From: Thermodesulfobacterium commune DSM 2178
GTDB taxonomy: Bacteria; Desulfobacterota; Thermodesulfobacteria; Thermodesulfobacteriales; Thermodesulfobacteriaceae
Reading direction: 5' to 3'
NCBI RefSeq assembly: GCF_000734015.1
Contig: NZ_CP008796.1
Span: forward strand, 630,001-662,000
Length of the DNA stretch: 32,000 nt
Numbering within the stretch: the stretch's first letter is position 1; each line of letters starts with the position of its first letter. Below, piece after piece: positions 15,270-15,408 of the stretch. The notes below the pieces were generated by a model. That model was given only the letters and a program-made list of their open reading frames with translations, was not told the origin of the DNA and searched no databases. The position numbers were made by a program, and so were the translations under genes.

Positions 15270-15374
15270 CGCCTACCCCCCTTTAAACACAAACTTTGAG
15301 AGGTAGGCGTCATCAGCCCCTAAAGACTTTAGAGGCGATTTATGGGGGACGCCATCCCCAATTCTTTGACTTGA
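15270..15374 (-). promoter_or_regulatory. Structured GC-rich 5' leader of the antiporter-usp operon (candidate riboswitch or RNA switch; class not recognised)
   Basis: On the minus-strand RNA, segment B GACGCCUACCUC (15311-15300) can pair with segment C GGGGGGUAGGCG (15281-15270), which covers the RBS up to the AUG, over 10 bp. Alternatively B can pair with upstream segment A GGGGAUGGCGUC (15359-15348) as 4 plus 6 bp. A hairpin CCUCUAAAGUCUUUAGGGG (15335-15317) lies between. Confidence 0.5.
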
Positions 15375-15380
15375 CTAAAA

Positions 15381-15408
15381 AATATAAAACTTTTTTATAT
15401 CTTGTCAA
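15381..15408 (-). promoter_or_regulatory. Candidate sigma70 promoter of the antiporter-usp operon
   Basis: On the minus strand: TTGACA (15408-15403), a 16-nt spacer, then TATATT (15386-15381). Confidence 0.5.

Follow-up and report, generated by a model that had tools for sequence, protein, structure and literature searches.

A fluoride riboswitch of the crcB motif, very likely with a translation-controlling expression platform, in the leader of a cation:proton antiporter-usp operon

Results

The antiporter-usp operon, its promoter and its surroundings

We analysed a stretch of DNA of 32,000 nucleotides (the whole stretch is called the window hereafter), in which two minus-strand genes lie behind a structured leader. 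The first gene (14124-15269, minus strand; AUG at 15269-15267) encodes a CPA2-type cation:proton antiporter of 381 amino acids (Na_H_Exchanger; Pfam PF00999, E 1.3e-37), which also matches the CPA2 model TIGR00932 under the cutoff of that model. The second (13693-14112, minus strand) starts 11 nt after the antiporter gene and encodes a universal stress protein (Usp) of 139 amino acids (Pfam PF00582, E 3.2e-29). We considered the ORF at 12884-13567 (minus strand, 227 amino acids) as a third gene of the operon and rejected it: it has no family match, IS110 fragments lie on the opposite strand, and it is probably antisense noise rather than a gene.

The IS110-family transposase fragments (12366-12743 and 13109-13573, both on the plus strand) represent the N-terminal DEDD_Tnp_IS110 and the C-terminal Transposase_20 parts. 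They sit between usp and a DUF6657 gene, and 13109-13573 falls almost wholly within the rejected ORF. The DUF6657 gene comes almost directly after usp in Thermodesulfobacterium sp. TA1 (locus L082). Set against TA1, the fragments look like the decayed remains of an insertion sequence, close behind the operon under riboswitch control. Elsewhere in the window, an apparently intact Mutator/IS256-family transposase gene (7123-8328, plus strand; PF00872, E 3e-63) adjoins two genes for CNNM/CBS/CorC-type transporters (8304-10669, minus strand). The riboswitch promoter is flanked by genes for a NikR-type nickel-responsive regulator (16616-17038, plus strand) and a prenyltransferase-like protein (15555-16364, minus strand); TA1 keeps this order, and it has no evident link to the riboswitch.

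Upstream of the operon, a sigma-70-type promoter occupies 15381-15408 of the minus strand. Its -35 box TTGACA (15408-15403) and -10 box TATATT (15386-15381) are separated by a 16-nt spacer, and they agree with the consensus at 11 of 12 positions in our scan. Promoter-like sites show no excess in this AT-rich region (8 found, 7.3 expected from shuffles), so we base the call on the position of the site and on the -35/-10 pair, which recurs at roughly equal register in several close relatives (alignment A2). Transcription would start near 15375. The resulting minus-strand leader of about 105 nt is GC-rich: the GC content is 0.49 at 15250-15349 against 0.16-0.41 in the other 100-nt segments of 14000-16499. 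The initial annotation of this locus had described the same promoter and the same GC-rich leader, and the RNA sequence that it quoted is exact.

The leader matches the fluoride riboswitch family over its full length

Performing an Rfam scan, we found that the leader matches RF01734 (fluoride riboswitch, crcB motif) at 15368-15297 on the minus strand. The match scores 52.0 bits against a gathering score of 34, with an E value of 8e-12 for the whole window and 1.3e-13 for the local region (15100-15600). It spans model positions 1-64 of 64 and is not truncated. At the gathering threshold, the whole window returned three tRNAs and RF01734, and nothing more. A permissive scan of the 501-nt region 15100-15600 (E ≤ 1) gave no family besides RF01734; at this threshold nhaA-I and DUF1646 were without a match on either strand, and so were ROSE, fourU and the other thermometer families of Rfam.

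The initial annotation had proposed a riboswitch that fits no known consensus and had pointed to Na+/Li+ sensing or to an RNA thermometer. The full-length match bears out the riboswitch and supplies the consensus, to which the leader aligns end to end. As the permissive scan returned the fluoride family alone, with the ion-responsive classes nhaA-I and DUF1646 absent and the thermometer families unmatched, we discarded the cation-sensing and the thermometer readings. We conclude with high confidence that the leader is a fluoride riboswitch with a translation-controlling expression platform. The main practical value of this assignment lies in the correct annotation of the operon, as fluoride-inducible and not as Na+/Li+-regulated.

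The aptamer is complete and its pseudoknot covaries

The aptamer extends over 15297-15368 as delimited by Rfam; this and all further features of the leader are on the minus strand. According to the structure line of the Rfam alignment, the P1 hairpin (15344-15359) pairs GGGG (15359-15356) with CCCC (15347-15344) and closes the 8-nt loop AUGGCGUC (15355-15348), which stands at the place of the consensus loop AUGGNGUN. The variable P3 hairpin lies between the linker and CUGAUGA at 15316-15336 and is composed of GCCUCUAAA (15336-15328), the loop GUC and UUUAGGGGC (15324-15316). The conserved linker AUAAAUC stands before P3, and the P3 stem is also seen in ON-mimic folds. The conserved 3′ tail CUGAUGACGCCUAC (15303-15316), placed by the Rfam alignment and the covariation count, comprises the 3′ strand of the pseudoknot, GACGCC (15311-15306), and the conserved UAC (15305-15303). 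Its partner, the 5′ strand GGCGUC (15348-15353), lies inside the P1 loop. The two strands form six Watson-Crick pairs, five of them G-C, and follow the family pattern of GGNGUN with NACNCC. The single-stranded elements AAC(C/U)GCC, CUGAUGA and CCUAC of the family align with AAAUCGCC, CUGAUGA and CCUAC in the leader.

The conserved elements hold what we take to be the nucleotides of the Mg2+-F- pocket (A6, U7, G8, U41 and G42) and the tertiary pairs (A6-U38 and A40-U48). For the Thermotoga petrophila aptamer, Ren et al. 2012 reportedly described the fluoride-Mg2+ pocket nucleotides, which have the same positions in the window. The initial annotation had paired the tail segment with an upstream near-duplicate. 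That pairing is real, but its register differs from the one proposed and is that of the 6-bp aptamer pseudoknot (15353-15348 with 15311-15306).

For the covariation analysis, we cut out P1 and the tail from the RF01734 matches beside orthologous antiporters, which gave 59 distinct sequences. Taking P1 and the pseudoknot together, 99% of the cells are paired and compensatory changes occur in 7 of the 10 pairs. None of 500 shuffles reached the observed values, and slid registers were paired in 33-63% of the cells. The P1 cells are 99.6% paired, and two of the four pairs covary. The pseudoknot columns are 98.6% paired with compensatory changes in five of six pairs, equalled by 0 of 500 shuffles; the central pair appears as A-U, C-G (as in the window), G-U, G-C or U-A.

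A 12-bp helix that shares a strand with the aptamer covers the Shine-Dalgarno sequence

The minimum free energy (MFE) fold of the 121-nt leader is dominated by an anti-Shine-Dalgarno (anti-SD) helix (z = -2.75; 0 of 200 shuffles fold as well). Its 5′ arm is CGCCUACCUCUC (15298-15309), located by the MFE fold and by conservation and compensatory changes in relatives, and its 3′ arm is GGGGGGUAGGCG (15270-15281), located by the MFE fold, relatives and duplex energies. The 3′ arm contains the Shine-Dalgarno sequence GGGGGG (15281-15276; GGAGG in relatives), after which come UAGGCG and the AUG. The helix of 12 bp closes a loop of 16 nt and stops one base short of the AUG at 15269. Its 5′ arm (15309-15298) shares bases with the pseudoknot strand (15311-15306) and with the UAC, and GACGCCUAC, made up of the 3′ pseudoknot strand and the UAC, leads straight into this arm. 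The expression platform thus takes part of its 5′ strand from the 3′ pseudoknot strand, and the shared stretch acts as the switching element.

The fold supports the earlier claim that mutually exclusive pairings hide the Shine-Dalgarno sequence and the start codon of the antiporter-usp operon. The 10-bp pairing of CGCCUACCUC with GGGGUAGGCG proposed in that annotation exists and covers the Shine-Dalgarno sequence, but its length is 12 bp (15309-15298 with 15281-15270). The three-way competition has to be reduced to a two-way one, in which the pseudoknot and the anti-SD helix compete for GACGCCUAC. The third pairing, AUCGCC with GGCGAU, is complementary, yet it shows no compensatory pair in seven relatives and 300 of 500 shuffles pair equally. 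We rejected it, as the conserved CGCC of the aptamer linker explains the match, and the pairing looks like a by-product of that motif. A different extension is possible: in the MFE fold, codons 2-4 (AUCAGCUCU, 15257-15265) pair with GGGGCUGAU (15320-15312), an outer OFF-state helix that would also unzip P3. Across the relatives, 84% of its cells pair, yet in 3-4 of the 7 the central pairs do not form.

No U-run follows the hairpin, the downstream sequence being AUGGAUCAGCUC. We therefore read the hairpin as a sequestering structure and rejected an intrinsic terminator. The terminator scan likewise found no minus-strand site in the leader, the nearest minus-strand match being in the coding sequence (15251-15233).

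Performing energy predictions with ViennaRNA, we compared the two competing structures. For the anti-SD hairpin alone, the predicted free energy rises from -20.8 kcal/mol (37 °C) to -8.9 (70 °C) and -5.3 (80 °C), while a bimolecular estimate for the pseudoknot duplex gives -9.6 kcal/mol at 37 °C and -4.3 at 70 °C. When GACGCCUAC is removed to mimic the bound aptamer, the remnant helix retains 5 predicted bp with -3.0 kcal/mol at 37 °C and is at 0.0 by 70 °C. As the Shine-Dalgarno bases pair with CCUCUC, outside the aptamer, fluoride binding would weaken their occlusion and not abolish it. Since the full helix is far more stable than the pseudoknot in these predictions, the switch may need kinetic, co-transcriptional control or may be tuned to high temperature. 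Such a platform, combining a GC-rich pseudoknot with an anti-SD helix of 12 bp, may be a thermophile adaptation that works only at high temperature.

Close relatives keep the aptamer and the sequestering helix

The antiporter shares 83% identity with its counterpart in Thermodesulfobacterium sp. TA1, and the TA1 locus is syntenic with the window. Six relatives (L082-L087, about 73-83% protein identity) carry RF01734 upstream at 49-56 bits and keep the sequestering helix, which is shorter and in another register in L084. The Shine-Dalgarno sequence in the 3′ arm abutting the AUG is an arrangement kept in relatives. In all loci of close relatives that continue past the antiporter, the next gene encodes a Usp.

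In alignment A2 (seven sequences), 84% of the anti-SD helix cells pair in the fixed register against 43-58% in slid registers. Four pairs have changed on both sides, for example from C-G to U-A and from U-A to C-G. In the shuffle control 30-47 of 500 reach the observed values, which with seven sequences is moderately convincing. Predicted duplexes between the tail and the ribosome-binding site (RBS) point the same way: the cognate duplex has -23.7 kcal/mol against a non-cognate mean of -10.8, and across close relatives the cognate values are -21 to -28 kcal/mol and the non-cognate ones about -10 to -12. Taken as a whole, the comparative signal for the anti-SD helix appears supportive but modest.

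We also scanned metagenomes with the 17-mer GGCUGAUGACGCCUACC and obtained 120 matches. About three-quarters are chance occurrences in unrelated sequence that has no upstream aptamer. Nine of the 120 have a same-strand downstream antiporter homologue, and these are largely repeats of L106, L125, L131 and L160; the scan brought little new diversity for the helix test. Seven further metagenome contigs (L092, L101, L145, L158, L167, L176 and L189) have near-identical leaders, some of them from a single JGI sample series. Between P1 and P3, the linker of their fluoride aptamer contains an additional GC-rich hairpin. A short hairpin, CCUCUCA/UGAGAGG, directly abuts the AUG, and the gene downstream of the leader is not the antiporter.

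Three antiporter-usp operons of Thermodesulfobacteriaceae (L001, L088 and L089; 70-72% identity) show no RF01734 match even at E ≤ 0.01 (in L001, region 2200-2530). Riboswitch control is thus dispensable for such operons, and it has been lost or gained within Thermodesulfobacteriaceae.

The riboswitch accompanies antiporter orthologues in many phyla

A genome scan with the antiporter alignment gave 80 loci from many phyla, among them Thermodesulfobacteriota, Acidobacteriota, Aquificota, Chloroflexota, Verrucomicrobiota and Firmicutes. RF01734 lies on the same strand within 200 nt upstream at 52 of the 80 loci and further upstream at 12, which makes 64 orthologues with an upstream riboswitch on the same strand. 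Three loci have it elsewhere in the locus only, and 13 lack it, two of them with no more than 104 nt of sequence upstream. A Usp homologue starts ≤300 nt downstream at 54 of the 77 loci that extend far enough. About 80% of the sampled orthologues, from many phyla, are therefore behind a fluoride riboswitch and about 70% are then followed by a Usp gene, which makes the CPA2 clade with the trailing Usp a good candidate for testing the 'Na+/H+ antiporter' class of fluoride-regulon genes. That the CPA2 antiporter and Usp form a dedicated two-gene module of fluoride defence, as opposed to an antiporter of general use in pH or salt balance that has come under fluoride control, is conceivable, though we rather doubt it.

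Twelve loci (L008, L011, L019, L020, L023, L024, L026, L041, L052, L057, L072 and L080) have 2-3 RF01734 matches within about 6 kb. Such multiple matches, some of them in divergent pairs, suggest multi-operon fluoride-response islands.

We folded 59 leaders, namely those of the window, of the six close relatives and of the 52 loci with the riboswitch directly upstream. The aptamer tail is the 5′ arm of a hairpin in most of them. By an automatic rule, the hairpin holds the Shine-Dalgarno sequence or the start in 28 leaders and is followed by a U-run in 15, and 16 are unclassified; several of these 16 resemble imperfect terminators. In four Verrucomicrobiota loci (L037, L042, L048 and L050), the aptamer tail folds into a hairpin of 10 bp, after which about seven U run directly into the AUG, and this element could be both a terminator and an occluder of the start site.

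Discussion

Proposed switching mechanism and its alternatives

The most likely design is a fluoride-ON translational switch, in which fluoride frees the ribosome-binding site. Fluoride binding and the direction and size of the regulation are what we infer from the sequence, and we propose the following model. Without fluoride, the 3′ tail would be free, and the 12-bp hairpin CGCCUACCUCUC/GGGGGGUAGGCG would bury the Shine-Dalgarno sequence. Ending one base from the AUG, it would leave the antiporter-usp mRNA poorly translated. With fluoride, the fluoride-Mg2+ cluster would lock the pseudoknot and the UAC tertiary contacts and so withhold GACGCCUAC from the helix. A marginal remnant of ≤6 bp (5 predicted), with G-U pairs, would be left, and the ribosome-binding site would open. 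Fluoride would thereby switch on the CPA2 cation:proton antiporter and Usp, which presumably act against the stress and the acidification of the cytoplasm that HF influx brings about.

The fluoride riboswitch could instead act mainly on transcription, by Rho-dependent or intrinsic termination, or on mRNA stability, and not on translation initiation. A block of translation commonly exposes mRNA to Rho or RNases. At least 15 of the 59 orthologous leaders have a terminator hairpin and U-run on the aptamer tail, and the best-studied fluoride riboswitches are transcriptional (PMC11077080). In the window, however, neither a U-tract after the hairpin nor a minus-strand terminator site in the leader is found, and the 3′ arm is the Shine-Dalgarno sequence itself, abutting the AUG as in relatives. 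We consider a mainly transcriptional action unlikely.

A second alternative is an RNA thermometer, in which the 12-bp hairpin over the Shine-Dalgarno sequence would melt on warming with no ligand. The falling predicted stability of the hairpin from 37 to 70 and 80 °C would suit it, and the closest relatives are Thermodesulfobacterium species, which are thermophiles. Yet even at 70-80 °C the predictions leave the hairpin stable, a complete ligand aptamer overlaps its 5′ arm, and no thermometer family matched the region. Orthologous leaders, moreover, swap the Shine-Dalgarno hairpin for terminators on the same aptamer strand, which fits control by ligand and not by temperature. This makes a thermometer very unlikely. 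Least of all do we expect a Na+/Li+ riboswitch of the nhaA-I/DUF1646 type or a new ion-sensing class to control the antiporter: cation-sensing riboswitch classes occur upstream of antiporters and the downstream gene is a cation:proton antiporter, but RF01734 is the sole family at E ≤ 1 under permissive filters in the 501-nt region, and the leader has every conserved nucleotide of the fluoride aptamer as well as the pseudoknot, so such a sensor is extremely improbable.

We therefore retain the translational fluoride riboswitch, whose compact build could serve as an inducible element in high-temperature hosts.

Comparison with known systems

The nhaA-I (Na+) and DUF1646 (Li+) riboswitches resemble the present case in lying upstream of cation transporters or antiporters. 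They differ in ligand and in fold, and they have no match to the window in sequence or structure.

The riboswitch of Thermotoga petrophila, the aptamer of the crystal structure, also comes from a thermophile, and its pseudoknot with 83% GC equals the five G-C pairs out of six in the window. It switched at 65 °C and not at 37 °C (PMC11077080). It acts through an intrinsic terminator, whereas the window has a hairpin that sequesters the Shine-Dalgarno sequence.

Fluoride riboswitches that act on translation through a sequestering hairpin have been documented (PMC12667848, PMC11077080). Those of Pseudomonas syringae eriC-F and Burkholderia pseudomallei are, like the present design, ON switches that have no terminator and form the sequestering hairpin from the aptamer 3′ strand (PMC12667848), and an example from an archaeal hyperthermophile is cited in PMC11077080. 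The window differs from them in host lineage and operon, and in its predicted helix of 12 bp with a 16-nt loop.

The genes behind the leader are also familiar from the literature. Among the genes associated with fluoride riboswitches, Na+/H+ antiporters rank next after the fluoride exporters, and they have been tied to pH homeostasis when HF accumulates as a weak acid (PMC11139923). Genes for K+/Cl- transport were among those reported downstream of the crcB motif, with ligand binding predicted to raise expression (PMC2864571). A uspA gene belongs to the fluoride-riboswitch operon of Enterobacter cloacae FRM and is induced 120-fold (PMC5533749). The leader analysed here likewise occupies the 5′-UTR of genes of the fluoride-mitigation type, with the CPA2 antiporter and Usp downstream.

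The closest counterpart is the crcB motif itself (RF01734; Weinberg 2010; Baker 2012). The window shares with it P1 with the AUGGNGUN loop, P3, CUGAUGA, the 6-bp pseudoknot and the CCUAC tail. It also shares an expression platform that overlaps the 3′ pseudoknot strand, and antiporter and Usp genes are an associated class already listed for the family. The differences are minor: the window has AAUCGCC for the consensus linker AACCGCC, a long P3 of 9 bp and a GC-rich pseudoknot. Nothing essential differs. The RNA class, the type of mechanism and the gene association are all already known, and this leader is a routine member of RF01734.
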